A stretch of 58,975 nucleotides of DNA from Actinomycetota bacterium (GCA_005772765.1 SXIR01000170.1:1-58975); one strand, 5' to 3'; shown: positions 6,487-41,264, numbered from the stretch's first letter. Numbers and translations: made by a program. The notes: a model not told the origin generated them from the sequence alone.

Positions 6487-9400
6487 CCGACGCCCGTTCG
6501 TTGCCTCGCCCACTGATGTTCGGTCGTCTCGCCGAGCCGCGCGTGCAGCGGCTCGGCATCGCCGTCTTCGCGGCGCTTTGTTACGTCCCGCTGCTGTTGA
6601 CCGATCCGGGCAAGGTCCACGCGGATACGAAGAGCTACTTGTATCTCGATCCTTCGCGGCTCCTCGCCGGTGCGCGGTCGATGTGGGATCCCGAGATCGG
6701 CTTGGGGACGACGAGCCACCAGACGATTGGGTATCTGTTTCCGCTCGGCCCGTACTACTGGTTCACGATCGACGTGTTGGGAATGCCGGCGTGGATCGCG
6801 CAGCGGCTTGCGTTGGGAACGATGCTGTTCGCGGCCGGCATGGGCGTGCGGTATCTCCTGCGCGTCGTCGGGATCGGGGGCGCAGGGGTCGCCGTTGGCA
6901 TGATGGCCTACACCTTCACGCCGTACGTGCTCCAGTACTCGGCGCGCTTGAGCGTCTTGCTCGGTCCGTGGTCGGCGTTGCCGTGGTTGACGGCCTTCAC
7001 GATGTTGGCCCTCCGGCATGGCGGGTGGCGTTACCCGGCGCTCATCGCGCTGACGATCCAACTCGTTGGCTCCATCAACCTCACTGCCATCGTGCTCGTC
7101 GTCATCGGTCCGGTGCTCTGGGCTCCGTACGCGGTGATGGCGTTGCGTGAATGCGACTGGCGTCGGGTTGGTGGGCTCGCAGTGCGCGTCGCGTCGTTGT
7201 CCGTGTTCGCGTCGTTGTGGTGGATGTCGGGTTTGTGGGTCGAAGGCGGCTACGGGCTCAGCATCTTGCGGTTCACCGAGTCGATCCAGACCGTGGCCGC
7301 GACGTCGTATCCGTACGAGTTGTTACGCGGGCTCGGGTACTGGTTCTTCTACGGGAGAGACCGCATCGGTCACTGGAACGACGCGTTCTTGGTGTACTCG
7401 CTCAACGCATCGGTCGTCTTCGCAAGCCTTGCGATCCCGGCGCTGGCGTTCGCCGCCGCGGCCGTGACCCGATGGCGGCTCAAGGGCTATTTCGCGTTGC
7501 TCGTGTTGATCGGCGTGGCGATCGCCGTGGGATCCGCGCCGTACGACGACCCGTCGCCCCTCGGTTCGGTGTACAAGTCGTTTGCGACGACCTCGACGGT
7601 GGGGTTTGCCCTGCGCAGCACGGCGCGCGCTGCGCCGCTCATGGTGCTGGGATTGAGCGTCCTATTGGCCGCTGGCGTGACGGCATTCACCCGCGAACTG
7701 CGTGCGCTCGGGCGCACCAGGAGCGCCACGCTGATCCCCATCGTGATCGTGGGTCTTGTACTGCTCAACGCGCCAGGCGTCTGGAAGGGGAGCTATTACA
7801 GCGACTATCTCGCCCGCGACGAAGCGATCCCGCAGTATTGGACCGACGCACTCGCCGACCTCGACGCTGCGTCCCACGACACGAGGGTGTTGGCACTGCC
7901 GGGTGCCGACTTCGCCGCGTACCGATGGGGTGACACCGTCGATCCGATCGAACCCGGGCTGATCGATCGTCCGTACATCGCTCGCGAACTGGTTCCGTGG
8001 GGATCCGAAGCCACGACGAACCTCCTCGTTGCGCTCGATCGTCGGTTGCAGGAGGGGACGCTCGATCCCGACGCCGTTGCGCCCATCGCTCGGCTCATGG
8101 GCGTTGGCGACATCGTGTTGCGTTTCGATCTCGAAACAGACCGCTTCACGTTGATACCCGCCGGCCCGCTGTGGCAGACGTTCACCGACGCAAACGCCGA
8201 CACGGGTTTGCCCGACGGATTACGTGAGCCCGTGGGCTACGGCGACGAGATCCCGGGTTCGCTGCGATTCCCCGAGCTCGGCGACCTGGCCCGGCCGCCG
8301 TCGGAGGATCCCGACCCGCCGCCCGTCGCGGTCGTCGGTGTCGACGACCCGGTTCCAGTAGTTCGTTCGAAATCGGCCGTGCCGATCGTCGTCTCGGGCG
8401 ACGGCGACGGCCTCGTCGACCTCGCGGCAGCAGGTGTCATCGACGGCCACAGCCCCATCGTCTACTCGGGGTCGAATGCCGACGATCCTCGCGTGCTGCG
8501 CGATCTTCCCGATGGGGCCGTCCTCGTGGTCACCGACTCGAACCGTCGGCGCGGGATGCGCTGGGCCGGTCTCTACACGAACTACGGCTACACCGAAGTC
8601 GCGGGTGAAGAGCCGCTCCTCGATGATCTGCTCGACCAACGCCTCGTCGTCTTCCCCGACGCGGGCGACGACGCCGCGACGGTGACCGAACTGCGCGGCA
8701 TCGCGGACCTCCGCGCATCGCGCTACGGCACGGCTTCGTTCGGCTACAGCCCGGGTGAACGCCCGGCCATGATGTTCGACGGGAACCGCGAGACGTCGTG
8801 GGTTGTCGACGGCGGGTCGGAACTCACGAACCAATGGGTGACGATGGCGTTCGACGCGCCGATCACCACCGATCGCATCGAGATCGTGCAACCTCGAACG
8901 CAACGTACTCGGCGCTTCCTGTCGCGGATTTCGGTGCGGTTCGACGGTGGCCCGCGCGAGTTCTTCGACCTCGGGGCTGCGTCGCGGCGAATCGGCGGCC
9001 AGGCGCTGACGTTCGAAACGCGCACCTTCGAGCGGCTCGAGATCCGCATGGAAGCGACGAGCGGCGGCGGCGGGATCTACCTCGGAAACCTCAATCCCAT
9101 CGGCATTGCCGAGCTGCGAATCCGTGACACCGATCGCGGTCGTCGCATCCGGGTCGAGGAAGTCGCCCGGGTGCCGGTCGACCTCCTCGACGCGCTCGGA
9201 GCCGACAGCGACGGACATCCACTCGCGTTTGCCTTTGCTCGCGACCTGACGATGGACGGCACGAACCTGTGGCGCCGCTTCGAGGTGCCGAGTACGCGCT
9301 CGTTCGGATTGTCGGGGACGCTCCAGCTCAGCTCGTTTGCGGACGACGCCATCATCGACGAACTCCTCGGTATCCCGGCTGCGCGCGATGGCGGTGTCAC

Positions 9401-10901
9401 CGCAACCTCGAGCGGGCGACTCGGCGATCCGGCGACGAGAGGATCGGCCGCGCTCGACGGTGATCTGTCGACGGCGTGGATGACGCCGATCGCGTTCGTC
9501 AAGGAAGCGGCGATTCGGGTCGACCTTCCCGCACCTCGCGTCATCGATCACCTCGACCTGGCGTTCACCGCCGATGGTCGCCACTCGATGCCGACGCAAC
9601 TCACGATCTCGACGGCAACGGGCGACGAACGCGTTGTCGATCTGCCGGTGCTCGACCCTGCCCCGACGCCGACCGGTTACGTCACCGCTCGCGTCGACTT
9701 CGAACCGATCGAGACCGACGACCTCGAAGTCGAGATCAGCGACTTCCAGCCGGTCGAGCGCAGCGAAACCGTCATGCCGGCGGGCATCGTCGAACTCGGC
9801 ATCGAGGGCGTGCAGCGAGGTGCGCCGCAGGCGGGTCTTGCCCTCGAATGTCGTGACGATTTGCTCGAAATCGACGGAACGCCGATCGGAATTCGCGCCC
9901 GGGCTACCACGGTTGACCTCCTCGACCAACGGCGCGTCGAGTTCACGGCATGTGAGCCCGTCGAACTGGCCGGGGGCGCGCACGAACTGCGCAGCCGCAT
10001 GAATCCCGATTCGAGAACCGCGCTCGATCTCACCCGTGTGTTGCTCGTCTCGGACAGCCGCGGCGAGGCAGGGTCGATCGACGACGTCCGCCCCGTCGCT
10101 CAGGCGACGGCGCCGGTGATCATCGAGAACGGGCGAAGCCGGGTCTCCGCCCAGATTGCACCCGATGGCGGCAAACAGTGGTTGATCCTGGGCCAGAGCA
10201 TCAACCGCGGCTGGGTCGCGACCCTCGATGGTGAAGACCTGGGTGCGCCAGCGCTGATCGACGGGTATGCGAACGGCTGGCTCGTCGACACGGCGAGTTG
10301 GGATGGGCCGCGTCGCGTGGTCTTCGAGTGGCGTCCGCAGCGCATCGTGAGCCTGGCCACCTGGATCTCGGGCCTCGCGGCCGTCGGTTGCCTCGCGCTC
10401 GTCTGGCGGACCCGCCGGCGCCGTGGTTCTGCGCCCGCGCCGTTGTGGCCTGACGAGACTCCGTCGTTCGTCGGCGGCCCCCGATTCGCTCGACCCGCTG
10501 GCGAAAGCAACGTCGACTTCGCGGTGCCAGGTCTGCTGTCGACGGTGGTGCTCGGGTGCGCGGCTGCGTTACTGGTCGGGCCGATGGCTGGCGTGGCGGT
10601 CGTGGTCGTCTTGACGCTCGCAAGGGTCGACGGATGGATCGGTCGGGGTATCCGTTGGTTGCCGACCGCCGTGCTCGGCTTTGTCGCCTGTTTCATGGCT
10701 GGATCGCAGTTGCTCCGCGATCTGCCGCCCCGATTCGATTGGCCTTCGCAGTTCGAGTCGTTACGAGTGCCGACGTGGATTGCATTGTTTGCGTTCGTCG
10801 GGCTCGCAATCGCCGGGAGCCGAGCGTCGGCGCGGATCACGACGGCGGCCAACGCGACTGCGGCCATTCATGCGGCCATTCATGCGGACGGGGAACCGTG
10901 A
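6483..10901 (+). CDS. aftD: Alpha-(1->3)-arabinofuranosyltransferase AftD-like / DUF3367 protein
   Basis: 1472 aa; 'ADTKSYLYLDP', 'HQTIGYLFPLGPYY', 'ELLRGLGYW', 'IPQYW', two discoidin-like 'FDGNRETSW'/'LDGDLSTAW' modules, 'DGYANGW'; ATGA coupling. Confidence 0.85.
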   Translation: MTDARSLPRPLMFGRLAEPRVQRLGIAVFAALCYVPLLLTDPGKVHADTKSYLYLDPSRLLAGARSMWDPEIGLGTTSHQTIGYLFPLGPYYWFTIDVLGMPAWIAQRLALGTMLFAAGMGVRYLLRVVGIGGAGVAVGMMAYTFTPYVLQYSARLSVLLGPWSALPWLTAFTMLALRHGGWRYPALIALTIQLVGSINLTAIVLVVIGPVLWAPYAVMALRECDWRRVGGLAVRVASLSVFASLWWMSGLWVEGGYGLSILRFTESIQTVAATSYPYELLRGLGYWFFYGRDRIGHWNDAFLVYSLNASVVFASLAIPALAFAAAAVTRWRLKGYFALLVLIGVAIAVGSAPYDDPSPLGSVYKSFATTSTVGFALRSTARAAPLMVLGLSVLLAAGVTAFTRELRALGRTRSATLIPIVIVGLVLLNAPGVWKGSYYSDYLARDEAIPQYWTDALADLDAASHDTRVLALPGADFAAYRWGDTVDPIEPGLIDRPYIARELVPWGSEATTNLLVALDRRLQEGTLDPDAVAPIARLMGVGDIVLRFDLETDRFTLIPAGPLWQTFTDANADTGLPDGLREPVGYGDEIPGSLRFPELGDLARPPSEDPDPPPVAVVGVDDPVPVVRSKSAVPIVVSGDGDGLVDLAAAGVIDGHSPIVYSGSNADDPRVLRDLPDGAVLVVTDSNRRRGMRWAGLYTNYGYTEVAGEEPLLDDLLDQRLVVFPDAGDDAATVTELRGIADLRASRYGTASFGYSPGERPAMMFDGNRETSWVVDGGSELTNQWVTMAFDAPITTDRIEIVQPRTQRTRRFLSRISVRFDGGPREFFDLGAASRRIGGQALTFETRTFERLEIRMEATSGGGGIYLGNLNPIGIAELRIRDTDRGRRIRVEEVARVPVDLLDALGADSDGHPLAFAFARDLTMDGTNLWRRFEVPSTRSFGLSGTLQLSSFADDAIIDELLGIPAARDGGVTATSSGRLGDPATRGSAALDGDLSTAWMTPIAFVKEAAIRVDLPAPRVIDHLDLAFTADGRHSMPTQLTISTATGDERVVDLPVLDPAPTPTGYVTARVDFEPIETDDLEVEISDFQPVERSETVMPAGIVELGIEGVQRGAPQAGLALECRDDLLEIDGTPIGIRARATTVDLLDQRRVEFTACEPVELAGGAHELRSRMNPDSRTALDLTRVLLVSDSRGEAGSIDDVRPVAQATAPVIIENGRSRVSAQIAPDGGKQWLILGQSINRGWVATLDGEDLGAPALIDGYANGWLVDTASWDGPRRVVFEWRPQRIVSLATWISGLAAVGCLALVWRTRRRRGSAPAPLWPDETPSFVGGPRFARPAGESNVDFAVPGLLSTVVLGCAAALLVGPMAGVAVVVVLTLARVDGWIGRGIRWLPTAVLGFVACFMAGSQLLRDLPPRFDWPSQFESLRVPTWIALFAFVGLAIAGSRASARITTAANATAAIHAAIHADGEP

Positions 10902-12888: not shown

Positions 12889-13683
12889 ATGAGCACGAAG
12901 ACAGTGACGCGACGCAAGGCGGTCGTGTGGAGCGCTCGTGCCGGAGCCGTGGTTGCCGTTGGCGCGTGGGCAGCACCCAAGTTCGAACTCGCGGGTGCGA
13001 CCGGCACCGGAACGGGCACCGGGACGGGTTCGACGACGATTCCGCCGACCAACCCTCCGACGACCGATCCCACCGTCACGACGGCCGGGACGGGTACTGG
13101 CACCGCTGGCTCACCGTGTCCGGATCCAGATGCTCCGGCGTGCAACGAAGAAACCACCACGACGCGCCCGGGCGCCGGCAAGCGCGTCAGTTGTTCGGTG
13201 GAACCCGAAGAAGTTCGACCGAATGCCAAGGCAACGTTTCGCGGTGAGGGCTGGGAATCATCGAGCACCGTGATCATCAAGATCGTCGGCTTCGGCAAGA
13301 TCGGTGAGGCCGCAGTGCAGCCGAATGGTTCGTTCGAGCGCTCGTTGACGATTCCCGACCTGGCGAACGGCAACTATCGCGCCGAGGTCGTCGGCAGCGA
13401 CGCCGAGGGTGACGAAGCCCGCTGCTTCGACGACATGACCGTCAACCGTCAAGGCGGTACCGGCACCGGTTCTGTGACCACCGGTGGCGGCAACTCCGGC
13501 AGCGGCGGATCCGACAACAACGGATCGGGCAGCGCAGGCAGCGGGGGAGGCACCTTGCCCTTCACCGGCTCGGATTCGACGAACCTGCTCGCACTCGGTG
13601 CTGGTGCACTCGTCGTCGGTCGGGTGCTCTACGGCGTACGTGAGCGGCTGGCCGAACGAGATGCCGCCCTCGCCGATTCCTGA
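12889..13683 (+). CDS. Sortase-anchored (LPFTG) surface protein with Tat-like/RiPP-leader-like N-terminus, Thr-Gly repeats and one Ig-like domain
   Basis: MSTKTVTRRKAVV...GAWAAPKFELAGA-TGTGTGTGTGS; Pro/Thr linker; ~90-aa beta-rich domain; Gly/Ser linker; LPFTG (13555-13569) + hydrophobic stretch + RER tail. Confidence 0.75.
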   Translation: MSTKTVTRRKAVVWSARAGAVVAVGAWAAPKFELAGATGTGTGTGTGSTTIPPTNPPTTDPTVTTAGTGTGTAGSPCPDPDAPACNEETTTTRPGAGKRVSCSVEPEEVRPNAKATFRGEGWESSSTVIIKIVGFGKIGEAAVQPNGSFERSLTIPDLANGNYRAEVVGSDAEGDEARCFDDMTVNRQGGTGTGSVTTGGGNSGSGGSDNNGSGSAGSGGGTLPFTGSDSTNLLALGAGALVVGRVLYGVRERLAERDAALADS

Positions 13684-14014
13684 ACCGCAGTCGAGCACTC
13701 CGCATCGGACGTCGGCTTCCTTCGTCGTCGGCGCCGACGTCGTCGTTCGTCGCTACGGTGACGTCGTGCTTGCCTGCTCCAGCTCCGTTGGCACCTTCGT
13801 TGCTCCGACCGTCGTGCGGATCAGCGGCACCGCCCTCGTGGTGTGGGACGCATTGGCGGCCGAACCCGATCTCGAGCGGCTCGGTCGACGCATCGCGCAG
13901 CGTTACACGATCGACGAGACCGTCGCAGCAGCCGACGTCCGTGACGTCGTTGCAGATTGGTGCGCCGCTGGCATCGTCGAGGTGATCGACCCGAGCGAAG
14001 CGCCCAAACCGTGA
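13661..14014 (+). CDS. PqqD-family RiPP recognition element (RRE) protein 1
   Basis: 'ISGTALVVWDAL..DLERLGRRIAQRYTIDETVAAADVRDVVADWCAAGIVE' fits the PqqD 3-strand/3-helix pattern. Confidence 0.8.
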   Translation: MPPSPIPEPQSSTPHRTSASFVVGADVVVRRYGDVVLACSSSVGTFVAPTVVRISGTALVVWDALAAEPDLERLGRRIAQRYTIDETVAAADVRDVVADWCAAGIVEVIDPSEAPKP

Positions 14015-15132
14015 CCGACAACGCGCCGTCGCGTTCGGTTCCCGCTCGGCGCGATCTTGCGGTCGCGATTGCCACGTTCGGCATGACGGAAGGGCCACGA
14101 TTTCCGCGCGCGCCGCTCGACGCGGAGGCGTGGGCGCACCTCATGACCGACGTGTCGTCGCAGCGTCTGCTCGGGCTCGCGGACGCCGCGATCACCGCGG
14201 GCTTTCCCGTGACCGAGCCGCAGGCAACCGACGTTCGGCGCGCCGCCGAGGCGCAAGCGATCGATTGCCTCGCGCTCGACACCATGCTGGTTGGTCTCGC
14301 CGACGAGTTCGATCGGGTCGGCATCGATTTCCGAGTGTTGAAAGGACCCGGTGTTGCTCGCCGCTTCTATGCACGGATCGAATGGCGGCCGTATGGCGAC
14401 ATCGATCTCCTCGTTCGACCCGACCAATGGGATCGCGCGGCTGCACACCTCGTGGAACTCGGTTGTGTACGCCGGTTCGACGAGCCGCGCGCCGGTTTCA
14501 CGGCACGTTTCGGGAAAGGTGCAAGTTTCGTCACGCCGTCGAACTACGAGGTCGACCTGCACCGCACTTTCGTCGCGGGCCCGCACGGATTGGCGTTCGA
14601 CCCGAACCTGTTGTTCACATCGCCGGTGACCTTCGATGTCGGCGGTCGGACCTTGCCCATGTTGAGTGACGTGCACGGGGCGATCCACGTCGGGATGCAC
14701 GCCATACTCGGCAGTGCTGCGCCGCGATGGATCCCGCTCCGCGACTGCATCCAGATCGTTCGGTCCGGGTTGGAGGTCGACGACCTCGTCAGCGCCGCCG
14801 CCGACCTCGGCGCGCGCTGGCCTTTGGCGCTCGCACTGCGCCACGCGCACCGCGACCTCGCGATTCCGATCGACAGCGCGATCGAACAGTGGGGCAATGA
14901 CTACCGCCCGACCGCACGAGAAGCGCGCGCGGCCGAGGTGTATCGCAGCACCGATCAGCGTTACTCGCGCCAGGCGCTGGCCGGACTGCGCGCCATTCCC
15001 ACTTGGCGGGCACGCGCCGAGTACGCCGCAGCGCTCGCCCTTCCTGACCCCGCGTATCGTCGGCGGCGCGAGCAATCACTCGTTGGCCGTCTTCGGTTGT
15101 CGGCCCGTCTGGCGCGACGCGCCCGACCATGA
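14011..15132 (+). CDS. Nucleotidyltransferase family protein (NTP_transf_5 type)
   Basis: 'RVLKGPGVARRFYARIEWRPYGDIDLLVRP' and 'EVDLHR'; GTGA coupling to PqqD. Confidence 0.85.
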   Translation: MTDNAPSRSVPARRDLAVAIATFGMTEGPRFPRAPLDAEAWAHLMTDVSSQRLLGLADAAITAGFPVTEPQATDVRRAAEAQAIDCLALDTMLVGLADEFDRVGIDFRVLKGPGVARRFYARIEWRPYGDIDLLVRPDQWDRAAAHLVELGCVRRFDEPRAGFTARFGKGASFVTPSNYEVDLHRTFVAGPHGLAFDPNLLFTSPVTFDVGGRTLPMLSDVHGAIHVGMHAILGSAAPRWIPLRDCIQIVRSGLEVDDLVSAAADLGARWPLALALRHAHRDLAIPIDSAIEQWGNDYRPTAREARAAEVYRSTDQRYSRQALAGLRAIPTWRARAEYAAALALPDPAYRRRREQSLVGRLRLSARLARRARP

Positions 15133-15938
15133 CTCGCGCGGTCGCAACTTTTCGGGCGCTCGACGCGCGATGGACCGTCGAGGCCTCTCCGTGGTGGGTC
15201 GAACGGATCGCGACGGTCTTCGCCGCGACGCAGGTCAGCGACGATGCGAACGAACCGGCGGATCTGCAGTTCCGGATCGAGGGCGACGGTCCCGCGACGC
15301 TCACGAGCGCCGGACATTCGCTTTTGCGGGATGTACGTGTGGCCGCTGTGCTCGACCGCATCGTGTGGGAGGTGAACCAACTTGCGTGGCGTGCGAATCC
15401 CGCCGCGGTCTTGGTGCACGGCGGCTTGGTCGAACGCGCTGGACGTGCGGTCCTCGTGACCGGCCCCTCCGGGGTTGGAAAGACGACCCTCGTCGCGAGC
15501 CTCTGTCTACGCGGATTCGGTTACCTCTCCGACGAGATTGCCGCGCTCGGTCCGAGCGGACCGACTGCCTTCGCGAAACCGTTGTCGATTCGGCCCGGGG
15601 CGCAAGCGAGGTTCGGTCCGTTCGCGCCGCCCGCTGATCTTTCCGAGCTGATGACGAGTGCCTGGTACGTCCCGTTGGCGTCGGCGACCGCCAACGAGGT
15701 CGCAGTCGTTGTCTTCGTCGATCACGACGACCAGCGCTCGACGGCGCTGCGTCGCGTGCCGCGCGCCGAAGCCTTGGTCCGGCTCTGCGACCAGACCCCC
15801 AACCTGGCGGCGTCAGGTGCCGTCGGTTTTCGGCGGCTTGCCGCGATGGTCCGCGGCGCGCAGTCGGTCGACCTTGTGGCCAACGATCTCGGCCTTGCGG
15901 CGGATCTCGTCGTCGACGTGCTGGAATCACCCCGATGA
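15129..15938 (+). CDS. HprK-related P-loop kinase (PadeK / HPr-rel type)
   Basis: 'VLVHGGLVERAGRAVLVTGPSGVGKTTL...GFGYLSDEIAAL': His, Walker A and SDE signature; ATGA coupling. Confidence 0.85.
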   Translation: MTRAVATFRALDARWTVEASPWWVERIATVFAATQVSDDANEPADLQFRIEGDGPATLTSAGHSLLRDVRVAAVLDRIVWEVNQLAWRANPAAVLVHGGLVERAGRAVLVTGPSGVGKTTLVASLCLRGFGYLSDEIAALGPSGPTAFAKPLSIRPGAQARFGPFAPPADLSELMTSAWYVPLASATANEVAVVVFVDHDDQRSTALRRVPRAEALVRLCDQTPNLAASGAVGFRRLAAMVRGAQSVDLVANDLGLAADLVVDVLESPR

Positions 15939-16171
15939 CGGTGCGTCCGGTGGGTGCGTTGGTGGTCGAGGTGCTCGACGGCGAAGCGGTGATCTTTGCA
16001 CCCGCCGATGGACGCGTGCACCGACTCAACGAGATTGCCACTCGGTGGTGGTCGAACATCACTGCGGGAATCGAACCCGATGATCCAGCCGATCGAGAGG
16101 AATACGCCGAGTTCGTTGCGCAACTTGCGACCGCAGGACTCGTCGTCGATGTCGACGGGCGGCGTCGGTGA
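15935..16171 (+). CDS. PqqD-family RRE protein 2 (short)
   Basis: 78 aa: 'VEVLDGEAVIFAPADGRVHRLNEIATRWW...FVAQLATAGLV'. Confidence 0.8.
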   Translation: MTVRPVGALVVEVLDGEAVIFAPADGRVHRLNEIATRWWSNITAGIEPDDPADREEYAEFVAQLATAGLVVDVDGRRR

Positions 16172-17226
16172 ACCTCGATGCGCTGGCGCTCGGTGTGCTG
16201 TTCGGAGGCTTCGGTGTCCTCGTCGGCGCGGTGTTCATCTTCTTGGTAGGTCGGCGCGGGCACGCCGATGGTGGTCTCGGCGTGTGGGTGGCCGCAGCCG
16301 GACTGTTGGCCGTCGAGTACACGAGCGAGGTCACCCAGCTCGTGCCGTGGGCGGCGATCGCTGCGATCGTTGTCCTCGCTGGTGGTGGGCTCTTCTTCGA
16401 CCGCGTGCCTGCTCGCTGGTCGCCGCTGGTGTTCGTGCCCGGCGCGAGTGCTCTGGCGCTGGTGCCCTTGAACGGGATCGAGCTGCAGACTCGAGTTGCG
16501 CTCGGGCTGATCACACTGGTTGCGTGCGTCGGGGCCGCCGACTTCGAACGCGCCCACGTGAGTGACGGCTTCGCCTTGTGGCTGTTCCCCGTCACCGCGC
16601 TTGTCCCCGCGCTCCTCATCGATGGTGGGACCGAACCGGGTTGGGCCTTTGCCGGTGCGTCGGCCGTGATGGTGGTCAACGTGATTCCTCGCCCGCGGGC
16701 TCGGCTCGGCGCGCCGGGTATCGCAGCGCTCGTCGGTGCGTACCTCTGGGTCGGAACGCTGTTGTCGGCGAATCGGGCGGTTCGGATGGCAACCCTGTTT
16801 GCCGGCTTGGGGTTTGTCGTCCTCGAGCCGCTTGCGCGCAATCTCGGGCGCATCGAAGCGCGGGGGCGCCGTCGGACGGGCAAGCGTCTCCAGGATCGTG
16901 ATGCGGTCATCATCGCGACTGGGGTGTTCGGCCAGGCAATCATCGGGTTCTTCGCAGTCCGCGTCACCGGGCACAGCCGCCGCTCCGAGTATGCGTTGTT
17001 GGTGTTGCTGGCGGTGCTGTCGGCGTTCACCGCAACCGCCCGGGCGTTCGTGCCCGCGGCGAACCGTCGACGCACAGGCGACTCGCGGCGACGCTCAGGC
17101 GGGCGTTCTCGGCGCGGGGCAACGTGGGTGCGGGCGGTTACCGGCGACCGATCGCACCGGAGCCACCGCGGTCGTCACCGCGGTCGTCATCGCAGTCGTC
17201 ATGGCGACGGTCGCGACAACGTCTGA
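16168..17226 (+). CDS. Multi-pass membrane protein, possibly degenerate MraY/WecA (glycosyl transferase family 4)-like, with Arg/His-rich tail
   Basis: About 10 hydrophobic segments; 'NVIPRPRARLGAPG' loosely resembles 'N.PPA.IFMGD.G'; GTGA coupled to PqqD2. Confidence 0.5.
   Translation: MNLDALALGVLFGGFGVLVGAVFIFLVGRRGHADGGLGVWVAAAGLLAVEYTSEVTQLVPWAAIAAIVVLAGGGLFFDRVPARWSPLVFVPGASALALVPLNGIELQTRVALGLITLVACVGAADFERAHVSDGFALWLFPVTALVPALLIDGGTEPGWAFAGASAVMVVNVIPRPRARLGAPGIAALVGAYLWVGTLLSANRAVRMATLFAGLGFVVLEPLARNLGRIEARGRRRTGKRLQDRDAVIIATGVFGQAIIGFFAVRVTGHSRRSEYALLVLLAVLSAFTATARAFVPAANRRRTGDSRRRSGGRSRRGATWVRAVTGDRSHRSHRGRHRGRHRSRHGDGRDNV
17164..17203 (+). repeat. 12-bp imperfect tandem repeat (caccgcggtcgt) encoding HRGR-HRGR-HRSR-H
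   Basis: Read directly from the sequence. Confidence 0.7.
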
Positions 17227-17263: not shown

Positions 17264-18835
17264 TCAAACCGATTCGGGATCGAGTTCGAAGCGTCGTTGC
17301 ATGATCGACGTGTACTTGACCGGCTTGGGCCGCTCGGGCATCGAGAGCAAGATGAACAAGAACGGCAGGATCTGCGTTCGTTGGCGAGCGAGAATGCCGA
17401 AGTTCGCGAAGTTGCCGAACACGATGACGAAGAACACGACCGCGACGATGGCGAAGATCGCGTACGCGTAATCGCGACGAATCGATTTCAGGAGGCGTCG
17501 TCCCGCGATCGCGAGGGCGATCGCGTACGCAAACGACTCGACCGACGTGACGAGTTCTTGGGGCGAGGTGGCCTCGACGGGTAGCGGGCGGAACAGCACG
17601 GTGATCGCACGCATCGGAAAGTTCCAAGCTGGCGCAGGCGTGAACTGCGACCCGCCCTGTTCGGTGCGGTCCTGGGCGGCGTCGAACTCGTCGGTGACCG
17701 CGCTGGTGCCGTCGAGCAGGTTCGTGCCGAAGTAGTCGTTCGCCTGAGTGAGGACGAACGACCCAAGGGTGATCAGTAAGAAGAACGTCGCCACCGTGCC
17801 CGATGCCTTGACGCCCTTGCGCTTGCGCAACAAGAGCGCGATTGTCATCGCAACGGTGACGACCATCGCGACGTGGGTGCGCACGTAGGTGACTTCGATG
17901 ATCCCGCCGGCAATGCACACCGCGCCGATGATCGTTGCGTTCGTGAGCATCAGCGCCACGCCGTACGTCGCCAGTCCGAGACCGAAGATGGCGAGCGCTT
18001 CCTTGCCGATCGATGACGGCCAGTACATGAGCGACGGCGCGAACATCACGAGCAGCAGGTACCGACGCTGGGCTTCGGGGAACACCCTGCGAAAGCCACG
18101 GGCGAAGAGCAACAAGCCCATGAGGCCGATCCACGAGAAGAACACGAAGCCACCGATCTTGGTGGGTGTCGTGTAGTGGTAGAACTCGGCGGTCACGATC
18201 CGCACGAAGTTGGTGCTGGTCCACTTGTTGACGTTCGGCAGCGTTCCTTGGCTCAGGTAGTCGGCCGCCCACTTCCGGCCGTAGAGGTCGTACTCGCTGG
18301 CATCGGACCGGTCGTAGACGCTGGTACCGACGTAGAACCGGGCCAGTGTGCCGAGCAGCTTGAGTGAGAGCGACGCGCTGAGAATGACCGTCAGCTCGGG
18401 CGCGCCATCGGCCTTGGCGAGACGTTTGAAGATCGAGATCGAAAGGGTCGCTAGCGCCGCCGCGATGAACGTCGCTGCGACCAGCTCGGAGTCGCCGGTG
18501 GCGATTCCCGATGCCAGCATCGTGGCGACCGCGAACCCGCCGGCGACACACAAACCAACCGCCCATCCGTGGTTCGCTGCATCGCCGTCGTCGAGACCGA
18601 GCCGCGCGGCGGCATCGTCGGATTCAGCTGCAGGTTCGGTTGCCTTGTCGTGATCGAACGGCAGCAACGTATCGTCGGCGAGTTCGAATCGGCCTCGGGG
18701 CGCGGGAGACGGCGCGCCGTCGGGCAGGGTTGGCGACGCGGCCGGCTCGTCGTCGTCGAGCCAGTGCCCCCGTCGATGGACGCGCGGGGCCGGACGTTCG
18801 GGCTGCTCGCCCTGGTCGTCGAGCCAGGCGCGCAC
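17264..18835 (-). CDS. Putative polysaccharide polymerase / GT-C-like membrane protein
   Basis: Likely GTG 18835 just after the kinase stop; 'SDASEY', 'PSLMYWPSSIGKEAL', 'NFGILARQRTQILP', many TMs. Confidence 0.6.
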   Translation of the reverse strand: MRAWLDDQGEQPERPAPRVHRRGHWLDDDEPAASPTLPDGAPSPAPRGRFELADDTLLPFDHDKATEPAAESDDAAARLGLDDGDAANHGWAVGLCVAGGFAVATMLASGIATGDSELVAATFIAAALATLSISIFKRLAKADGAPELTVILSASLSLKLLGTLARFYVGTSVYDRSDASEYDLYGRKWAADYLSQGTLPNVNKWTSTNFVRIVTAEFYHYTTPTKIGGFVFFSWIGLMGLLLFARGFRRVFPEAQRRYLLLVMFAPSLMYWPSSIGKEALAIFGLGLATYGVALMLTNATIIGAVCIAGGIIEVTYVRTHVAMVVTVAMTIALLLRKRKGVKASGTVATFFLLITLGSFVLTQANDYFGTNLLDGTSAVTDEFDAAQDRTEQGGSQFTPAPAWNFPMRAITVLFRPLPVEATSPQELVTSVESFAYAIALAIAGRRLLKSIRRDYAYAIFAIVAVVFFVIVFGNFANFGILARQRTQILPFLFILLSMPERPKPVKYTSIMQRRFELDPESV

Positions 18836-18840
18836 GGGAC

Positions 18841-20592
18841 TCAGTCGCCGATACCGATCGGGACGTCGAGGTCGAGGTCCGTGTCGTCCTTGCCCTTGCG
18901 ACCGAAGAGCTTGCGCGGCTTCTCGCGACCGGCGGGCGCGGGCGGACCGACCTTGCGGCCGTAGCCGTAGCCGTAGCCATACCCGTAGCCATACCCGTAG
19001 CCGTACCCGTAGCCATACCCAGGACGGGAGCTGACCGCACCGACGAGCACGATGCCCAGCACGGGGGCGTCGAGGCGGCGAAGCTGTTGGGTCGCTCGTT
19101 CGAGCGCGTTCACCTTGGTGACGGCATCCTTTGCCATGAGCACAACGGCGTCGGCGTAGGGGAGCAGGTCGAAGGGGTCGTTCGTCACGAGCAGCGGCGG
19201 CGTGTCGATGAGCACGATGTCGAAGAGTTCTCGTGCCTTGACGATGGCGGCCTGCCCGGCGAGCGTCGCATCGGCCGGCGACGACGAGGGCGAGGCGCTG
19301 TTGATGAAGAACACGCCCGGGATCGACGTTTCCTGCGCGAGCGCTTCGACGTCGACGATCGGGTCGGCAAGCGTGCCGGAGTTCTCGAGGAAGAGTTCTG
19401 CGTCGGTATCGAGGAACTTGTGCAACCGCCGGCGGCGGTAGTCGAGGTCGAGCACGAGCACTCGCTTGCCCATCTCGGCGTACGCGGCGGCGAGGTTCGC
19501 AGTGCTGGTCGACTTGCCCTCGGACGGGCCGGCCGAGGTGACCATCACGCACTGCGGCGCGGGCGGGTCGCCTTCTTGCGCATTCGCCATCCACATCAGC
19601 TCGACCGAAGTGCGCAGTCCCCGATACGCGTCAGCAGTTCTCGAGCTCGGAGCTTGGTGGGTCAACACGTCGAAGCGTCGACGACGCGAAGGCGATACGA
19701 ACGGGATCTCGGCAAGCACGGGTAGGCGAGTGACCGTCTCGGCGGAGCGAACGCCGAAGATCGATGTGTCCGAACGATTCATCGCGTACGCAGTGATTGC
19801 GCCGAGCAAGAGTCCAACGACCAGGCCGAGCGCGAGGCGGGCCGGACGGCTGTCGGGAATTTTCACGCTGTCGGTCGTCGACAGCGGTAGCGGTTGCACG
19901 TCGGCGAACTGCACCGAGAACACCGGCTTCTTGCGGTTGAACAAGTCCTCTTGGCGGCGGAACTGTTGGCGAAGCTCGCGCATTTCGCTGCGCTTCGCCG
20001 TGAGCGCTCGACCAATGACCCGCTTGTCGTCGGCGGTGAGCGCAGCCGCGAAATCCTTTTCGAGATCGGCTTGTTCTTCAGACGCGAGGTTGATCTTGTC
20101 CTGGGTTTCCTGCAAGCGAGCGGTGAGCTTCAGGTCGTCCTTGGCGTCCTCGAAGCGGACGAGTTCATCGGCGAGTGACTTGACGATTCCGCGTACCGCG
20201 AACGCGTCCGGTCCGGTCCCCGTGATCGTGATGAGGTTGCGTGGGGCTTCGGGGTTCGCGTCGATGCTCACGTTCGCGATGCGCGTGGTGCGAGGGGAAA
20301 ATCGGTCGTCGGTGTTCTTCAGTTTGGACGGCGTGAAGTCGGGCGGCTGCAGCAAGATCTTGCGGATCGCGTTGGGTACTTCGCCTTCGGTCGCGTCGAG
20401 CGCCACGACATCGAGGTTCACTTTGCCGGTGGCCTTGACGCGCTGGGTTCCGACCCACTGCGTCGTCGTCTCGGAGGTCGACGTTCCGCCCGGCGACGCG
20501 GTGAAGAACGAGACGAGGCAACCGATCGCCATGAACATCGCGATGAGACGCCACCGGCGTCGGATCGCGATGAGGATGTCGAGTGCCCGCAC
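18841..20592 (-). CDS. wzc: Wzc-like polysaccharide co-polymerase / BY tyrosine autokinase
   Basis: Two TMs flanking a coiled coil; Walker A 'SAGPSEGKST', A' 'VLVLDLD', B 'VLIDTPP'; C-terminal (GY)10. Confidence 0.9.
   Translation of the reverse strand: MRALDILIAIRRRWRLIAMFMAIGCLVSFFTASPGGTSTSETTTQWVGTQRVKATGKVNLDVVALDATEGEVPNAIRKILLQPPDFTPSKLKNTDDRFSPRTTRIANVSIDANPEAPRNLITITGTGPDAFAVRGIVKSLADELVRFEDAKDDLKLTARLQETQDKINLASEEQADLEKDFAAALTADDKRVIGRALTAKRSEMRELRQQFRRQEDLFNRKKPVFSVQFADVQPLPLSTTDSVKIPDSRPARLALGLVVGLLLGAITAYAMNRSDTSIFGVRSAETVTRLPVLAEIPFVSPSRRRRFDVLTHQAPSSRTADAYRGLRTSVELMWMANAQEGDPPAPQCVMVTSAGPSEGKSTSTANLAAAYAEMGKRVLVLDLDYRRRRLHKFLDTDAELFLENSGTLADPIVDVEALAQETSIPGVFFINSASPSSSPADATLAGQAAIVKARELFDIVLIDTPPLLVTNDPFDLLPYADAVVLMAKDAVTKVNALERATQQLRRLDAPVLGIVLVGAVSSRPGYGYGYGYGYGYGYGYGYGYGRKVGPPAPAGREKPRKLFGRKGKDDTDLDLDVPIGIGD
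18961..19020 (-). repeat. 6-bp coding repeat giving a (Gly-Tyr)10 tyrosine cluster
   Basis: 60 nt of gtagcc/ataccc/gtaccc units. Confidence 0.9.
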
Positions 20593-22481: not shown

Positions 22482-24197
22482 ATGCGCATGAGCCGACTCT
22501 TTCTTCGCACGCTGCGGGACGCCCCTGGCGATGCCGACGTCGAGAGCCAACGGCTCTTGGTGCGTGCGGGTTATATCCGCAAGGTCGCGGCCGGCGTGTA
22601 CTCCTGGTTGCCGCTGGGGCAGCGGGTCCTGCGCAAGGTCGAACAGATCGTGCGCGACGAGATGGACGACGCAGGCGCGCAGGAACTCTCGTTGCCGATC
22701 ATCCAGCCGCTTGAGTTGTGGGAACAGAGCGGTCGCGACGCGCTCTATGGGCCGCTCATGTTTCGGCTGCACGACCGCAAGGAGACCGGTTTCTGTCTCG
22801 CACCAACAGCAGAAGAGGTCATCACCGCGACCGTGCGCGGCGAGTACTCGAGCTACCGAGACCTACCGGTCAACTTGTATCAGATCCAGTGGAAATATCG
22901 AGACGAGTTGCGGCCGCGTTTCGGCCTGCTGCGCGGTCGCGAGTTCTTGATGAAGGACGCCTACAGCTTCGACGCCGACGTCGAAGGCCTGCGCGAGTCG
23001 TATCGGTTGATGTACGACGCGTACCACCGCGTCTTCGATCGGTGCGGGCTCACGTTCCGACCCGTCCAGGCGCAGTCGGGCGAGATCGGCGGCGACGTCA
23101 ACCACGAGTTCATGGCGGTGGCTGCGGTCGGCGAGGACGATTTCGTTTGGTGTCGCTCGTGCAACTACGCCGCCAACGTCGAAGCGGCGCGGCGACGCGA
23201 TCCCGACCCGGTCGCGACCAACGGTGATGAGGCCGCGCTCGAGCCGGTCCATACCCCGGACATGCCGGGAATTGCCGCCGTCGCGCAACATCTGGGCCTC
23301 GGCGAAGACGAGCTGTTGAAGTGCATGGCGTTCGAGGCCGATGGCCGGCTGGGCTTGGCGTTGGTTCCGGGCGATCGGGAGGTCAACGAGTATGCGCTCG
23401 GGACCGCCTTGGCCGGCTCGAAATTCGCGTTGCTCGACGAGGATGGTTTCGCGCGGCGGTCGTCGTTGCCGAAGGGCTACATCGGTCCGCACCATCCCGA
23501 TGTCGAACTCATCGTCGCCGACCCATCGATCCTGGCACGCACGGAATGGGTGACGGGCGCGAACACCACCGATCACCATGCGTTACATGCCGTGCCCGGC
23601 CGCGACTTCACGATCACCACCGTTGCGCCGCTGACCGCGGTGGTCACCGGCGACGCATGTCCGAACTGCGGGTCGGAGCTGTCGGTCGATCGCGGGATCG
23701 AGGTCGGACACGTTTTCCAGTTGGGCACGAAGTATGCCGAGTTGTTGGGCGCGGTCTACACCGACGAGCACGGCGCGCAGCATCCGATGGTCATGGGGTG
23801 TTACGGCATCGGGGTTTCGCGAGTGGTCGCTGCGATCGTCGAGGAGCACCATGACGGACACGGCATCGCGTGGCCAGCGAGTGTCGCGCCCTATGCCGTC
23901 CACCTCGTGGCGCTCGCGGGCAAAGGCGATGCTGCGGCGGCCGTGCGCGATGCGGCCGACCATCTGTATGCGGCATTGCGATCCGCTGGCGTCGACGTGC
24001 TGTACGACGACCGCGACTCGAGCCCCGGTGTGAAGTTCGCCGACGCCGACTTGTTGGGAATGCCGGTGCAGCTCACCGTTGGAGCCAAGGGACTGGCGAG
24101 AGGTGTGGTCGAGCGCAAGATCCGAGCGAGCGGCGTGCGCGACGAACTCGCGGTCGACGTCGTCGTCGACCAGATGGTCGCGAGCGCGATGACGTGA
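22482..24197 (+). CDS. proS: Proline--tRNA ligase
   Basis: 'LAPTAEE', 'KYRDELRPRFGLLRGREFLMKDAYSF', 'GIEVGHVFQLG', 'MGCYGIGVSR'. Confidence 0.98.
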   Translation: MRMSRLFLRTLRDAPGDADVESQRLLVRAGYIRKVAAGVYSWLPLGQRVLRKVEQIVRDEMDDAGAQELSLPIIQPLELWEQSGRDALYGPLMFRLHDRKETGFCLAPTAEEVITATVRGEYSSYRDLPVNLYQIQWKYRDELRPRFGLLRGREFLMKDAYSFDADVEGLRESYRLMYDAYHRVFDRCGLTFRPVQAQSGEIGGDVNHEFMAVAAVGEDDFVWCRSCNYAANVEAARRRDPDPVATNGDEAALEPVHTPDMPGIAAVAQHLGLGEDELLKCMAFEADGRLGLALVPGDREVNEYALGTALAGSKFALLDEDGFARRSSLPKGYIGPHHPDVELIVADPSILARTEWVTGANTTDHHALHAVPGRDFTITTVAPLTAVVTGDACPNCGSELSVDRGIEVGHVFQLGTKYAELLGAVYTDEHGAQHPMVMGCYGIGVSRVVAAIVEEHHDGHGIAWPASVAPYAVHLVALAGKGDAAAAVRDAADHLYAALRSAGVDVLYDDRDSSPGVKFADADLLGMPVQLTVGAKGLARGVVERKIRASGVRDELAVDVVVDQMVASAMT

Positions 24198-25270
24198 GCT
24201 TTCCGGTCGAGCCGCCAATCGAGCCGATGCTCGCGAAGCTCGCTCGCGAGTTTCCGGACCGTGCTGGTCTCCTGTACGAGCCCAAGTGGGACGGGTTTCG
24301 TTGCCTGGTGTTCCGCGATGGTGACGAGCTGTACTTGCAGAGCCGCAACTCGAAACCGTTGTTGCGATACTTCCCCGAACTGGTCGATCCGCTGCGTGCG
24401 TTCCTGCCCGAGCGGTGCGTCGTCGATGGCGAGTTGATCGTGATCGGCAATGACGGGCTCGACTTCGATGCGCTCCAGCTTCGTCAGCACCCCGCTGATT
24501 CGCGGGTCCAACGCCTCGCTCGGGAGATCCCGGCGAGCTACGTCGCGTTCGACCTCATCGCCGAACACGACGCGGTGCTCTTCGATGTCGAGTTCGGCGA
24601 GCGCCGGGCCCGTCTCGAACGCGGTCTCGCCGACGCCGCTGCACCGGTGTTCGTGACGCCGGCATCGACGGATCCTGCGGTCGGTCGGGACTGGTTCGAT
24701 CGATTCGAAGGCGCGGGATTCGACGGGGTCATCGCCAAGCCGTTGTCAGGACGCTACGAGCCCGGAAAGCGAACCTTGATCAAGGTGAAGCACGAGCGAA
24801 CCTGCGATTGCGTCGTTGCCGGTTATCGGGTGCACAAGGACGGCGCCGGCGTCGGATCGCTCCTCCTCGGGCTGCACGACGCCGACGGTGTGCTCCACCA
24901 CGTCGGCGTGGCCGCGAGCCTCGACGCCAAGTCTCGAAGTGCGTTGCTCGAGGTCGTCGAACCGCTGCGCGCGGGCGCTCTCGAGAACCATCCGTGGCGC
25001 GAGTGGGCTGAGTTCATGGCCACCGAAGTGGCGACCGATCAACGGATGCCCGGTGGTTTCAGCCGGTGGAACGCGACCAAGGATCTGCGCTGGGAGCCGT
25101 TGCGTCTCGAACTCGTCGCCGAGGTGGCGTACGAGGGTTTGCTGAACGGTCGGTTCCGACACAACGCGCGCCTTCGTCGGTTGCGATCGGACCGCGATCC
25201 GGCGACGTGCGCGTACGCGCAACTGGAGGTCGTCGCGCCGGCCGAACTCAGTTCGCTGCTGCGCACCTGA
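24194..25270 (+). CDS. ligC: ATP-dependent DNA ligase, LigC type
   Basis: 'PMLAK', 'YEPKWDGFR', 'DGELIV', 'KVKHERTCDCVVAGYR', 'RFRH'; GTGA overlap with proS. Confidence 0.9.
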   Translation: MSFPVEPPIEPMLAKLAREFPDRAGLLYEPKWDGFRCLVFRDGDELYLQSRNSKPLLRYFPELVDPLRAFLPERCVVDGELIVIGNDGLDFDALQLRQHPADSRVQRLAREIPASYVAFDLIAEHDAVLFDVEFGERRARLERGLADAAAPVFVTPASTDPAVGRDWFDRFEGAGFDGVIAKPLSGRYEPGKRTLIKVKHERTCDCVVAGYRVHKDGAGVGSLLLGLHDADGVLHHVGVAASLDAKSRSALLEVVEPLRAGALENHPWREWAEFMATEVATDQRMPGGFSRWNATKDLRWEPLRLELVAEVAYEGLLNGRFRHNARLRRLRSDRDPATCAYAQLEVVAPAELSSLLRT

Positions 25271-39772: not shown

Positions 39773-40320
39773 TGGGGAAGGTCGATGTCTTCGTGACGGT
39801 CGGAACCGACCATCACGCGTTTGATCGCGCCGTGCACCGAGCCGATGAGCTTGCCCGTCGCGGCCGCTCGGTCGTCGTGCAGTACGGAACGTCGCGCCCT
39901 CCCGAGGTCGCGGAGGGGTACGACTACGTACCGATCGGTCGTCTCGAAGAACTCATGCGCACCGCGGCGGTCGTCGTGACCCACGGCGGGCCGGCGACGA
40001 TCATGCAGGCTCGCGACCTCGGCGTGCTTCCGGTCGTCGTCGCCCGCGACCCGGAGCACCACGAGCACGTCGATGGCCACCAGATGCGATTCGCCGCGCG
40101 TCTCAGCGGGTTGGGCACCGTGGTCGACGGCCAGGCCGACGAGGCCTTCTACGCGGCAATCGACCGCGCGCTCGCGAACCCCGACGAGTTCCGAGTGGCG
40201 ACGACCTCGGCGCGCACCGACGAGGTCGTTGCCACGATCGGCGATCTCATCGACACCATGGTCGCAACCCGACGTGACGGCGCGAAACCGGCGCGCACCC
40301 GCCGGTGGTGGCGACGATGA
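39772..40320 (+). CDS. Alg13/PssE/Cps14G-like glycosyltransferase subunit
   Basis: 'FVTVGTDHHAFDR', 'VVTHGGPATI', 'EHVDGHQ'. Confidence 0.9.
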   Translation: MGKVDVFVTVGTDHHAFDRAVHRADELARRGRSVVVQYGTSRPPEVAEGYDYVPIGRLEELMRTAAVVVTHGGPATIMQARDLGVLPVVVARDPEHHEHVDGHQMRFAARLSGLGTVVDGQADEAFYAAIDRALANPDEFRVATTSARTDEVVATIGDLIDTMVATRRDGAKPARTRRWWRR

Positions 40321-41264
40321 CAACCGTCGTCTTCGTTGCCGGTGTGGGGCGCAGCGGCAGCACACTCCTCGAGTCGATCCTCGGGTCGCTACCCCGCTGG
40401 ATCGGGGTCGGCGAGACGATGCATCTGCCTGAACGTGGATTGCGTGAAAACCAGCGCTGTGGTTGCGGAGAGTCGTTCTTCGATTGCGCGTTCTGGTCGC
40501 AGGTGGGAACGCACGCGTTCGGTGGGTGGGATCGCGTCGATGTCGACGACTGGCTCGGCCTCGCCGGCCGAGTGGACCGGAACCGAAACCTTCCGCTCCT
40601 CCTCAGGCCGAACCTCTCCCGAGATTTTGCGGCCGACCACGCCCGCCTCGTCGAACGATTGGGTTCGCTGATGCTCGCGGCCGCGTCAGTGGGCGATGCC
40701 GAGGTGGTCGTGGAGTCGAGCAAGCATCCGTCGTATGGGTTGCTGCTCGCGGCCGACCCTCGCCTCGACGTTCGATTCGTGCACGTCGTACGAGACAGCC
40801 GCGGCGTCGCGTACTCCTGGACGAAGAAGGTGCCGCGGCCCGAGATCGCCGATCGGGTCGAGTTCATGCCGACGTACCCACCTGCACAAATCGCGCTGCG
40901 ATGGTTGGCGTGGAACGGAGCGTTGAGCCTGGTCGGAGCCCGACGTGCGCTGCCGTCGCTGCGTGTTCGCTACGAAGATTTCGTCACCGATCCGACGCGA
41001 GTCGTGCAACAGGTTGCGTCGTTCGCGGGAACCGCCGCCGACGATGCGACGGTTGATGACATCCTCGAGCGCGGCGCGGCCGACGGGCAGCACTCCGTGG
41101 CGGGGAATCCCATGCGGTTCGGCACCGGGCCGATCCGGCTACGTCGCGACGAGCAGTGGCGGTCAGAGCTACGACCGCGCGATCGCGCCCTCGTCACCGG
41201 CGTCACCGCGCCGATGTTGTGCCGGTACGGCTACCGCCTGCGCCCGTCGAAGGAGAGCGTATGA
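40317..41264 (+). CDS. Sulfotransferase (Sulfotransfer_3-like)
   Basis: 5'PSB 'GVGRSGSTLL', 3'PB 'HVVRDSRGVAYSW', 'RYEDFVTDP'. Confidence 0.88.
   Translation: MTTVVFVAGVGRSGSTLLESILGSLPRWIGVGETMHLPERGLRENQRCGCGESFFDCAFWSQVGTHAFGGWDRVDVDDWLGLAGRVDRNRNLPLLLRPNLSRDFAADHARLVERLGSLMLAAASVGDAEVVVESSKHPSYGLLLAADPRLDVRFVHVVRDSRGVAYSWTKKVPRPEIADRVEFMPTYPPAQIALRWLAWNGALSLVGARRALPSLRVRYEDFVTDPTRVVQQVASFAGTAADDATVDDILERGAADGQHSVAGNPMRFGTGPIRLRRDEQWRSELRPRDRALVTGVTAPMLCRYGYRLRPSKESV

Follow-up and report, generated by a model that had tools for sequence, protein, structure and literature searches.

Can a single N-terminal peptide serve a bacterial surface protein both as its export signal and as the docking site for a modification machinery encoded right next to it? 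This question is raised by a 58,975-nucleotide stretch of DNA from an Actinomycetota bacterium (GCA_005772765.1, SXIR01000170.1:1-58975; hereafter the window), which stems from a metagenome-assembled genome (MAG) that is 80% complete and comprises 233 contigs. On its + strand, the window carries a gene (12889-13683; 795 nt; translation MSTKTVTRRKAVVWSARAGAVVAVGAWAAPKFELAGATGTGTGTGTGS...) for a precursor or cargo protein of 264 amino acids. It is followed, in this order, by genes for a first PqqD-type protein (PqqD1), an NTP_transf_5 nucleotidyltransferase-like protein (NTP5), an HprK-like kinase, a second PqqD-type protein (PqqD2) and a membrane protein, with the ends of the genes overlapping.

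An earlier note had read the first 48 residues of the cargo protein (12889-13032) as a hybrid of a twin-arginine translocation (Tat) signal, a lasso peptide leader consensus and an AxA cleavage site, and had proposed that this peptide both directs export and docks to the PqqD-type proteins acting as RiPP recognition elements (RREs; RiPP, a peptide made by the ribosome and modified after translation). Translation of the window confirmed the quoted peptide and its position. Our comparisons of genomes and loci support the view that the leader goes specifically with the PqqD cassette and does not reflect a generic feature of Tat signals. With slightly better than even confidence, we regard the cargo protein as the substrate of a system from actinobacteria that is related to the linear polyphosphorylated peptide (LPP) systems, its leader doubling as a Tat-type export signal and an RRE docking site. 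The earlier interpretation is partly supported, and more strongly than its own lasso argument merited: linkage to the cassette and the homology of the PqqD proteins to the B1 RREs of lasso peptide systems speak for a dual docking and export signal, while half of the lasso consensus does not hold.

The leader and its cargo protein

The cargo protein belongs to no Pfam family. Five homologues with identities of 49-73% were recovered among 8000 candidates scored from a large protein collection, and we therefore consider the gene to be real; a search of the genome contigs with the cargo alignment matched 599 pattern stretches and no relative. The protein is composed of an RR-type leader-signal, a T/G/P-rich linker, an Ig-like β-sandwich (residues 98-190, with C102 and C179; 13180-13458), a G/S-rich stalk and an LPFTG sorting signal. 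An AlphaFold2 model predicts the sandwich to be seven-stranded (approximately residues 98-190), with the strands between residues 101 and 185 at pLDDT >90 and the remainder of the protein disordered; the best Foldseek matches are CARDB/Ig-like domains. At the C-terminus (13555-13680), the LPFTG motif (L223-G227, invariant in a family of six members) is followed by a hydrophobic stretch and a basic RERLAERD tail. All features of a sortase substrate are present, and the genome contains three sortase genes, so that the sequence identifies the cargo as a sortase-anchored cell-wall surface protein. The orthologue from a genome of the same genus (G001; locus L009, 7428-8173, − strand) is broken within the Ig-like domain into two frames that overlap, reflecting either a frameshift or an assembly error, and its sorting motif reads IPWTG; this genome also lacks a PqqD1 gene.

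Conservation of the protein is concentrated at its N-terminus. By our count, the six-member family keeps 18 of its first 37 residues unchanged (among them V6, T7, R8, R9, W27, P30, F32, A35, and A37), vs. 26 of the 93 residues of the folded domain and 105 of all 264. A signal peptide that is better conserved than the mature domain is unusual. When 18 N-termini were aligned, the twin arginine R8-R9 (within TRRKAVV; 12910-12915) as well as W27 and P30 proved invariant, and the residue at position +5 relative to the Trp was always F, L, I, M, or V; the WxxP element is accordingly found in 18 of 18 aligned N-termini. W27-A-A-P30-K-F32 (12967-12984) corresponds to [Y/W]xxPx-hydrophobic, the motif defined for RRE binding (PMC13381572), and is our proposed docking motif. 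Downstream of it lies A35-G36-A37 (12991-12999), a likely signal peptidase I site; cleavage at this position is suggested by the conservation of A35 and A37, which are invariant in the six-member family, and more distant members carry A-[FYL]-A at the equivalent place. The leader can be summarized as RR, a run of 14-20 hydrophobic residues, most of them small, then W-[AVST]-[AGT]-P-x-[FLIMV], and finally A-x-A. In shape it looks like a Tat signal ending in AxA: hydrophobic residues come after an invariant RR pair, then a stretch of moderate hydrophobicity and AxA, and the genome encodes TatC.

The spacing on which the lasso comparison had been based, W27-x-x-P30-x-F32-x-x-x-G36-x5-T42, is present in the cargo ORF (open reading frame). 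Among the homologues, RR, W27, P30, and the hydrophobic residue at +5 are conserved, whereas the Gly at +9 and the Thr at +15 are not. The complete pattern [YW]xxPx[LF]xxxGx5T occurs twice among the 33,750 six-frame ORFs of the same genome; one occurrence is the cargo ORF itself and the other is attributable to chance, and a Thr at +15 is easily met inside a TG repeat. These two points would favor the notion that the leader merely resembles an RRE-binding peptide by chance, as might happen in an Ala/Gly/Thr-rich actinobacterial protein. This reading is disfavored by the conservation data, however, since the Trp, the Pro and the +5 residue are kept over 18 N-termini that head different cargo and are exclusively linked to the cassette; we consider it very improbable.

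The PqqD cassette and its linkage to the leader

PqqD1 (13661-14014, + strand) is a discrete RRE of about 117 amino acids that scores 35.4 bits on the Pfam PqqD model (cut-off 23.4 bits); the ATG that we chose as its start overlaps the end of the cargo gene by 23 nt. PqqD2 (15935-16171, + strand; 78 amino acids) is likewise a discrete RRE and lies at the Pfam cut-off with 23.8 bits; its start overlaps the stop of the kinase gene. Single-sequence searches of the Protein Data Bank (PDB) with either protein yielded nothing meaningful, and the matches came from family profiles. The PqqD1 family profile matched the lasso B1 RREs TbiB1 (9.9e-9) and TfuB1 (3e-8), both of which have been solved with leader peptides, while the match of the PqqD1 protein itself to the lasso model NF033530 (lasso_PqqD; 1e-4) stayed under the cut-off. 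The PqqD2 family profile matched TbiB1 (6e-19), PqqD (4.5e-11), TfuB1 (1.7e-10), and the 2026 PqqD-family entries 9x90_B (1.3e-8) and 9x8z_B (5.9e-7). Across loci, two paralogous PqqD types recur: the first is encoded immediately upstream of NTP5, the second immediately downstream of the kinase. In the assembly studied here, PqqD proteins were found at the cassette only. Between them lie NTP5 (13957-15132, + strand; start uncertain), which carries a YGDIDLLV motif and matches PF14907 (5.3e-24; 85.6 bits), and the HprK-like kinase (15129-15938, + strand) with an intact P-loop (GPSGVGKTT) and matches to TIGR04352 (HprK_rel_A; 7.6e-20), which scores highest on it among the curated models, and to Hpr_kinase_C (1.8e-5).

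A leader profile built from ten N-terminal segments (A2) scored 45.4 bits on the cargo ORF and at most 11.6 bits on every other of the 33,750 ORFs of the genome, in which about 12 clear Tat-type signals are encoded elsewhere, all without WxxP. Among 41 related genomes, NTP5 was present in 22 and HprK in 25. Strong full-length leader matches (E ≤ 1e-4) occurred, in our tabulation, in 13 of the 19 genomes with an NTP5 match at E < 1e-20 and in none of the 22 others; strong full-length matches are thus confined to genomes that possess the cassette. Twelve of the 15 strong matches lie within approximately 6 kb of a cassette gene, and two are on contigs too short to judge. Weaker profile matches, found on proteins of about 500 amino acids, span the RR part alone and are for these reasons ordinary Tat signals. 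The earlier reservation that RR..WxxP signals are widespread among actinobacteria can be set aside for this genome, because leader profile matches track the cassette and the other Tat signals have no WxxP. An orphan small LPVTG protein with the leader is encoded at 8805-10295 (− strand) of locus L090 (G009:C1, at about 1.795 Mb).

A wider sample of 64 loci from other Actinomycetota species was collected by NTP5 alignment; several of them are identical to contigs of the related genomes. They derive mostly from Acidimicrobiia MAGs, in addition to Motilibacteraceae, Nitriliruptorales, Jiangellales, a Nocardioides isolate and strain IMCC26256. Counting ORFs that scored at least 18 bits and reached profile position 29 or beyond, we found the leader in 36 of the 64 loci; among those with full 10-kb flanks, 26 out of 35 have it. 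When the full-flank loci were cross-tabulated by us, the leader was present in 23 of the 24 loci with both PqqD types and in three of the 11 with one or none. In the sole exception with both PqqD types (L051), an ORF of the LIYCCP family described below is cut at the edge of the fetched region. A regular-expression search for alternative leaders in the nine profile-negative full-flank loci was too noisy to be relied on; it returned only a weak WSAP leader in L038 and Trp-less variants in L073 (11282-12601, − strand) and L077 (11314-12699, − strand).

The leader heads at least five apparently unrelated types of cargo. Homologues of the cargo protein adjoin the cassette in four genomes (G001, G012, G015, and G014), and an LPXTG protein does so in a fifth (G020). 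In addition to the Ig-like LPXTG proteins, the leader is found on small T/P-rich LPXTG proteins, an S/T/G-repeat LPXTG protein, small Cys-rich proteins, and a family of about 240-570 amino acids without LPXTG ('GTERPC...LIYCCP') that begins with 'GTERPC' directly after the leader and ends in '...LIYCCP[RQ]'. An example of the latter is encoded in L066 (15736-16857, − strand), and 17 further loci contain a member. To avoid circularity, we redefined this family by its mature part alone. The resulting search recovered 18 ORFs in 18 loci, and RR...WxxPx-hydrophobic was present in 14 of the 14 ORFs whose match began away from the ORF start; of the remaining four, three are cut at the locus edge and one (L054) carries the leader by motif scan. 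The leader is common to cargo with LPXTG and to cargo without it.

These observations bear on the main rival to RRE docking, an ordinary export or targeting motif unrelated to RREs. The peptide would then be a conventional Tat (or Sec) signal whose WxxP and AxA are kept for export, for cleavage or for the spatial targeting of a set of surface proteins evolving together with the polysaccharide locus, and the PqqD proteins would act on an unseen substrate. The YSIRK-G/S motif, which occurs in signal peptides of Gram-positive LPXTG proteins, offers a parallel. None of RR, a hydrophobic stretch, a Pro with a basic residue, or AxA is out of the ordinary for a Tat signal; the cargo must be exported anyway, since it carries LPFTG; two leaders have no Trp; and the Sec signal of bufferins is dispensable for their modification (PMC11626156). 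On the other hand, other Tat signals of the same genome have no WxxP, and the motif occurs only one to three times per genome, almost solely beside the cassette. It is shared by LPXTG and non-LPXTG cargo, and it agrees with the experimentally defined RRE motif (PMC13381572). As to an unseen substrate, scanning the window and the loci by motif and by profile brought up no further ORF headed by a [Y/W]xxP leader, with no dedicated search for small ORFs having been made. We therefore judge an ordinary signal to be rather unlikely.

A second rival accepts that the leader is cassette-specific and assigns its recognition to the kinase, to NTP5 or to the membrane protein encoded at 16168-17226 instead of the PqqD proteins. 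Leader and cassette do co-occur even when one PqqD type is missing (G001 and G015), and the membrane protein is kept beside the cassette in the closest relatives. Against this stand the identity of WxxPx-hydrophobic with the known RRE-type motif (PMC13381572), the presence of the leader in 23 of the 24 full-flank loci with both PqqD types, and the confinement of the membrane protein to a subclade. Recognition by one of these other proteins appears decidedly improbable to us.

Relation to LPP systems, lasso peptides and Tat chaperones

LPPs are produced by Bacillota from lppA-K-B-S-D-N clusters (Popov et al., Nat Commun 2026, PMC13381572). That report states the RRE motif as [Y/W]xxPx[L/V/I/F/A] and describes precursors of 35-200 amino acids, one to three per cluster, with a conserved N-terminus (YxxPxVLxHQxIxFETxxS) and a variable remainder; the kinase polyphosphorylates core Ser3, 18 residues after the Tyr, and LppK did not phosphorylate Thr in the experiments described there (PMC13381572). 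The leader peptidase is a signal-peptidase-I-type enzyme to which the RRE presents the leader, the clusters are found within capsular polysaccharide loci and adjoin a tyrosine autokinase, and the authors term LPP Bacillota-restricted (PMC13381572).

The system described here resembles LPP in several respects. A core of discrete RRE, HprK-like kinase and NTP-transferase is common to both and recurs in our 64 loci; in both, a [Y/W]xxPx-hydrophobic leader is conserved and the C-terminal part is variable; and both stand in a polysaccharide context, the cassette here adjoining Wzc/Wzy genes. By positional analogy, a hydroxyl residue is found about 18 residues after the aromatic residue: G-[ST] lies mostly at +16 to +20 from the Trp, with a mode at +18 (14 cases; six each at +17, +19, and +20, and four at +16) among 53 regular-expression matches that include duplicates and some spurious frames. 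In the cargo protein itself, the (TG)5-S48 repeat (13000-13032) provides hydroxyl residues at +11 to +21 after W27 and may, on the same analogy, be the region of modification. The systems differ in host, ours being found in Actinomycetota and mostly in Acidimicrobiia MAGs, in the possession of two RRE paralogues vs. the one of LPP, and in the use of Trp vs. Tyr. The leader studied here also has an invariant RR pair and the shape of a Tat signal, and its cargo can be a folded, sortase-anchored protein of 264 amino acids, in contrast to the LPP peptides of 35-200 amino acids. Counterparts of the SipW-type LppS and the MsbA-like LppD were not found among the window ORFs scanned; in particular, no ABC transporter was detected among 27 window ORFs scanned with Pfam, a scan outside of which small ORFs fell.

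The window thus contains no dedicated leader peptidase, as the earlier note had argued, while the AxA site is conserved, and the use of a signal-peptidase-I-type enzyme by LPP (PMC13381572) is in keeping with this. A SipW-type leader peptidase was not found at the cassette, and the only TIGR02228 match above the cut-off in the assembly lies on contig C92. A role of this enzyme for the cassette is unsupported, since it is encoded on a separate contig beside an apparent TasA-like substrate of its own. The frame in question (C92:12565-18089, − strand) starts with this SipW-like enzyme, the sole archaeal-type signal peptidase I in the assembly, and continues with β-propeller-like repeats, and the ORF directly downstream reads as TasA/camelysin-like, apparently forming a separate SipW-substrate pair. 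Assignment of the missing leader peptidase to the membrane protein at 16168-17226 is equally unsupported, the sole lead for that protein being a Glycos_transf_4-like fold.

From these data, we infer a pathway whose binding step, chemistry, modified residue, export by Tat and point of cleavage are all provisional. The first approximately 37 residues, with RR, an Ala/Gly-rich hydrophobic stretch, Pro-Lys and AxA, would act as the export signal. In the cytoplasm, one or both PqqD/RRE proteins would bind W27-x-x-P30-x-F32 at the end of the hydrophobic stretch and present the cargo to the HprK-like kinase and the NTP5 enzyme. By analogy, the kinase would then phosphorylate a Ser or Thr residue just after the signal, and NTP5 might add a phosphate-linked decoration. 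The Tat system would export the modified protein, a housekeeping LepB-type signal peptidase I instead of a dedicated peptidase would cut the leader at A35-x-A37, and a sortase would anchor the LPFTG end to the cell wall. The genome encodes TatC, a LepB-type signal peptidase and the three sortases.

Several observations weigh against this reading. The Gx5T half of the claimed consensus fails because G36 (the lasso G+9) is F or S in two of the six family members, and because T+15 is not conserved, the distance to the TG repeat shifting through indels. The leaders of L073 and L077 are otherwise similar ('RR.FLR..AAAG...AGLP.VR[ST]FD.PA[FY]G..GSPP') and have no Trp; at both loci, the PqqD2 type alone was detected. 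For the Tat assignment, no TIGR01409 match to the cargo protein is listed at E ≤ 0.01. The kinase scores 71 bits on TIGR04352 vs. a curated cut-off of 200 bits and is therefore a relative and not a member of this family; the PqqD2 protein of the window is truncated, its second helix region being missing when compared with its relatives, and is borderline in Pfam. Neither RRE alone can be indispensable, because the leader persists in G001, which has no PqqD1, and in G015, which has no PqqD2. With respect to linkage, the leader profile was derived from cassette-adjacent sequences, nine of the 35 full-flank NTP5 loci have no leader match, one leader ORF (G009) is located approximately 690 kb away from the cassette of that genome, and the counts overstate independence because the related genomes are kin. 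Finally, in the largest cargo family the candidate site is a Thr, the residue that LppK left unphosphorylated in the work cited (PMC13381572). A predicted complex of PqqD1 (residues 18-117) with the leader (residues 1-54) gave ipSAE values of 0.01 and 0.02 against a mark of 0.32; with controls not run, it speaks neither for nor against binding.

We nevertheless favor LPP-related modification with a dual-purpose leader. RiPP logic, with its leader, RRE and tailoring enzymes, normally serves short peptides, for which a peptidase and an exporter of their own are required. In the present case, leader and general export signal seem to have merged, and folded proteins anchored by sortase are among the cargo. 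If true, the LPP family, described in 2026 as Bacillota-restricted, would reach into the Actinomycetota and to whole secreted proteins, and an RRE motif would be known for the first time from within a Tat-like signal. Export following cytoplasmic modification would offer a simple reason for the use of Tat. The cargo proteins would also provide a testable substrate set for two enzymes, the HprK-like kinase and NTP5, and the tight linkage to Wzy/Wzc genes may bear on how the envelope is built in these bacteria.

Paeninodin-type phosphorylated lasso peptides share a B1-type RRE, a WxxP leader, an HprK-like kinase and a nucleotidyltransferase with the cassette; their phosphorylation is reported to be on a C-terminal Ser (PMC13381572, PMC10368454). 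Both PqqD profiles match TbiB1 and TfuB1, so that a B1-type RRE as found in lasso clusters is indeed present. A lasso cluster is ruled out all the same: a cyclase, a B2 protease, Thr(-2) and a short core offering an Asp/Glu for ring formation are all missing, and G+9 and T+15 are not conserved. The B2 protease model (PF13471, Transglut_core3) gave a single 21-bit match under the cut-off on contig C233 and none in the window, and the sole asparagine synthase (PF00733) match of the genome, the candidate for a cyclase, lies on contig C89 and outside the window. The lasso framing of the earlier note was consequently abandoned.

Bufferins and other signal-bearing RiPP precursors (PMC11626156, PMC13056109, PMC12710340 DUF2282) likewise combine a general export signal with signal peptidase and use no dedicated exporter or peptidase; their signals are of the Sec or lipoprotein type, whereas the motif described here lies inside a Tat-like signal. 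In the literature covered, no actinobacterial, Tat-type or LPXTG version was found; this coverage did not extend to the supplements of PMC13381572, which possibly list non-Bacillota members.

A different kind of precedent is provided by the Tat system itself. The proofreading chaperones TorD, DmsD, and NapD are small cytoplasmic proteins that bind a twin-arginine signal until maturation is complete. Here, too, a small protein encoded beside its substrate would bind a twin-arginine signal, but the winged helix of PqqD/RRE proteins is an unrelated fold, and maturation would be covalent and not a matter of cofactor insertion. One might speculate that the PqqD/RRE proteins constitute a new class of such chaperones, which retain surface proteins until a phosphate-linked group has been added near the N-terminus, and that this group primes or attaches a Wzy/Wzc polymer; we hold this to be unlikely. 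If true, it would imply wall-anchored protein-polysaccharide conjugates in Acidimicrobiia and other Actinomycetota.

The surrounding envelope locus

The window is a cell-envelope polysaccharide and surface-protein locus, a reading based on its GT-C, Wzy/Wzc, sulfotransferase and DUF11/CARDB/PA14 genes. Besides the cassette, it encodes AftD-like and PMT_2-like GT-C glycosyltransferases, an MBOAT protein, a sugar transferase, a GT2 glycosyltransferase, Wzy_C and MatE proteins, and giant DUF11/CARDB/PA14 surface proteins. The gene directly following the cassette (16168-17226, + strand) encodes a polytopic membrane protein of 352 amino acids with no Pfam or NCBIfam match. Its retention beside the cassette in the closest relatives was seen by tblastn matches in L009-L011. 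A structural lead from the Atlas, to a Glycos_transf_4 cluster (WecA/MraY-like phospho-sugar transferase; TM 0.58 over 260 residues), is below the bar for naming it.

Downstream, on the − strand, follow a long ORF without Pfam match for a Wzy-like, polysaccharide polymerase-type membrane protein (17264-18700; start approximate) and a gene for a Wzc-like polysaccharide tyrosine autokinase (18841-20592; TIGR01007, 9.2e-24, under the cut-off). The former resembles, in our reading, membrane ORFs of about 480 amino acids in L012, L013, and L015 (with the stretch ...YWPS.IGK.AW... in common). The C-terminus of the autokinase ends in a perfect (GY)9-like repeat, presumably an autophosphorylation cluster. 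In several other genomes, NTP5 and the HprK-like kinase are separated by a Wzy-like, polymerase-type membrane gene that directly follows a Wzc-like gene; it lies on the + strand at about 7329-8843 in L012, at 7685-9127 in L013, and at 6846-8435 in L015. The cassette is therefore physically interleaved with polysaccharide polymerization genes.

Two sulfotransferase-family genes (40278-41264 and 44566-45531, + strand) are also present in the window and might add a further decoration; paeninodin-type clusters are said to be accompanied by sulfotransferases. Further along the + strand from the cassette, a proline-tRNA ligase gene (22482-24197) and the longest ORF for an ATP-dependent DNA ligase (23870-25270) share approximately 330 nt, and the DNA ligase therefore probably starts later.

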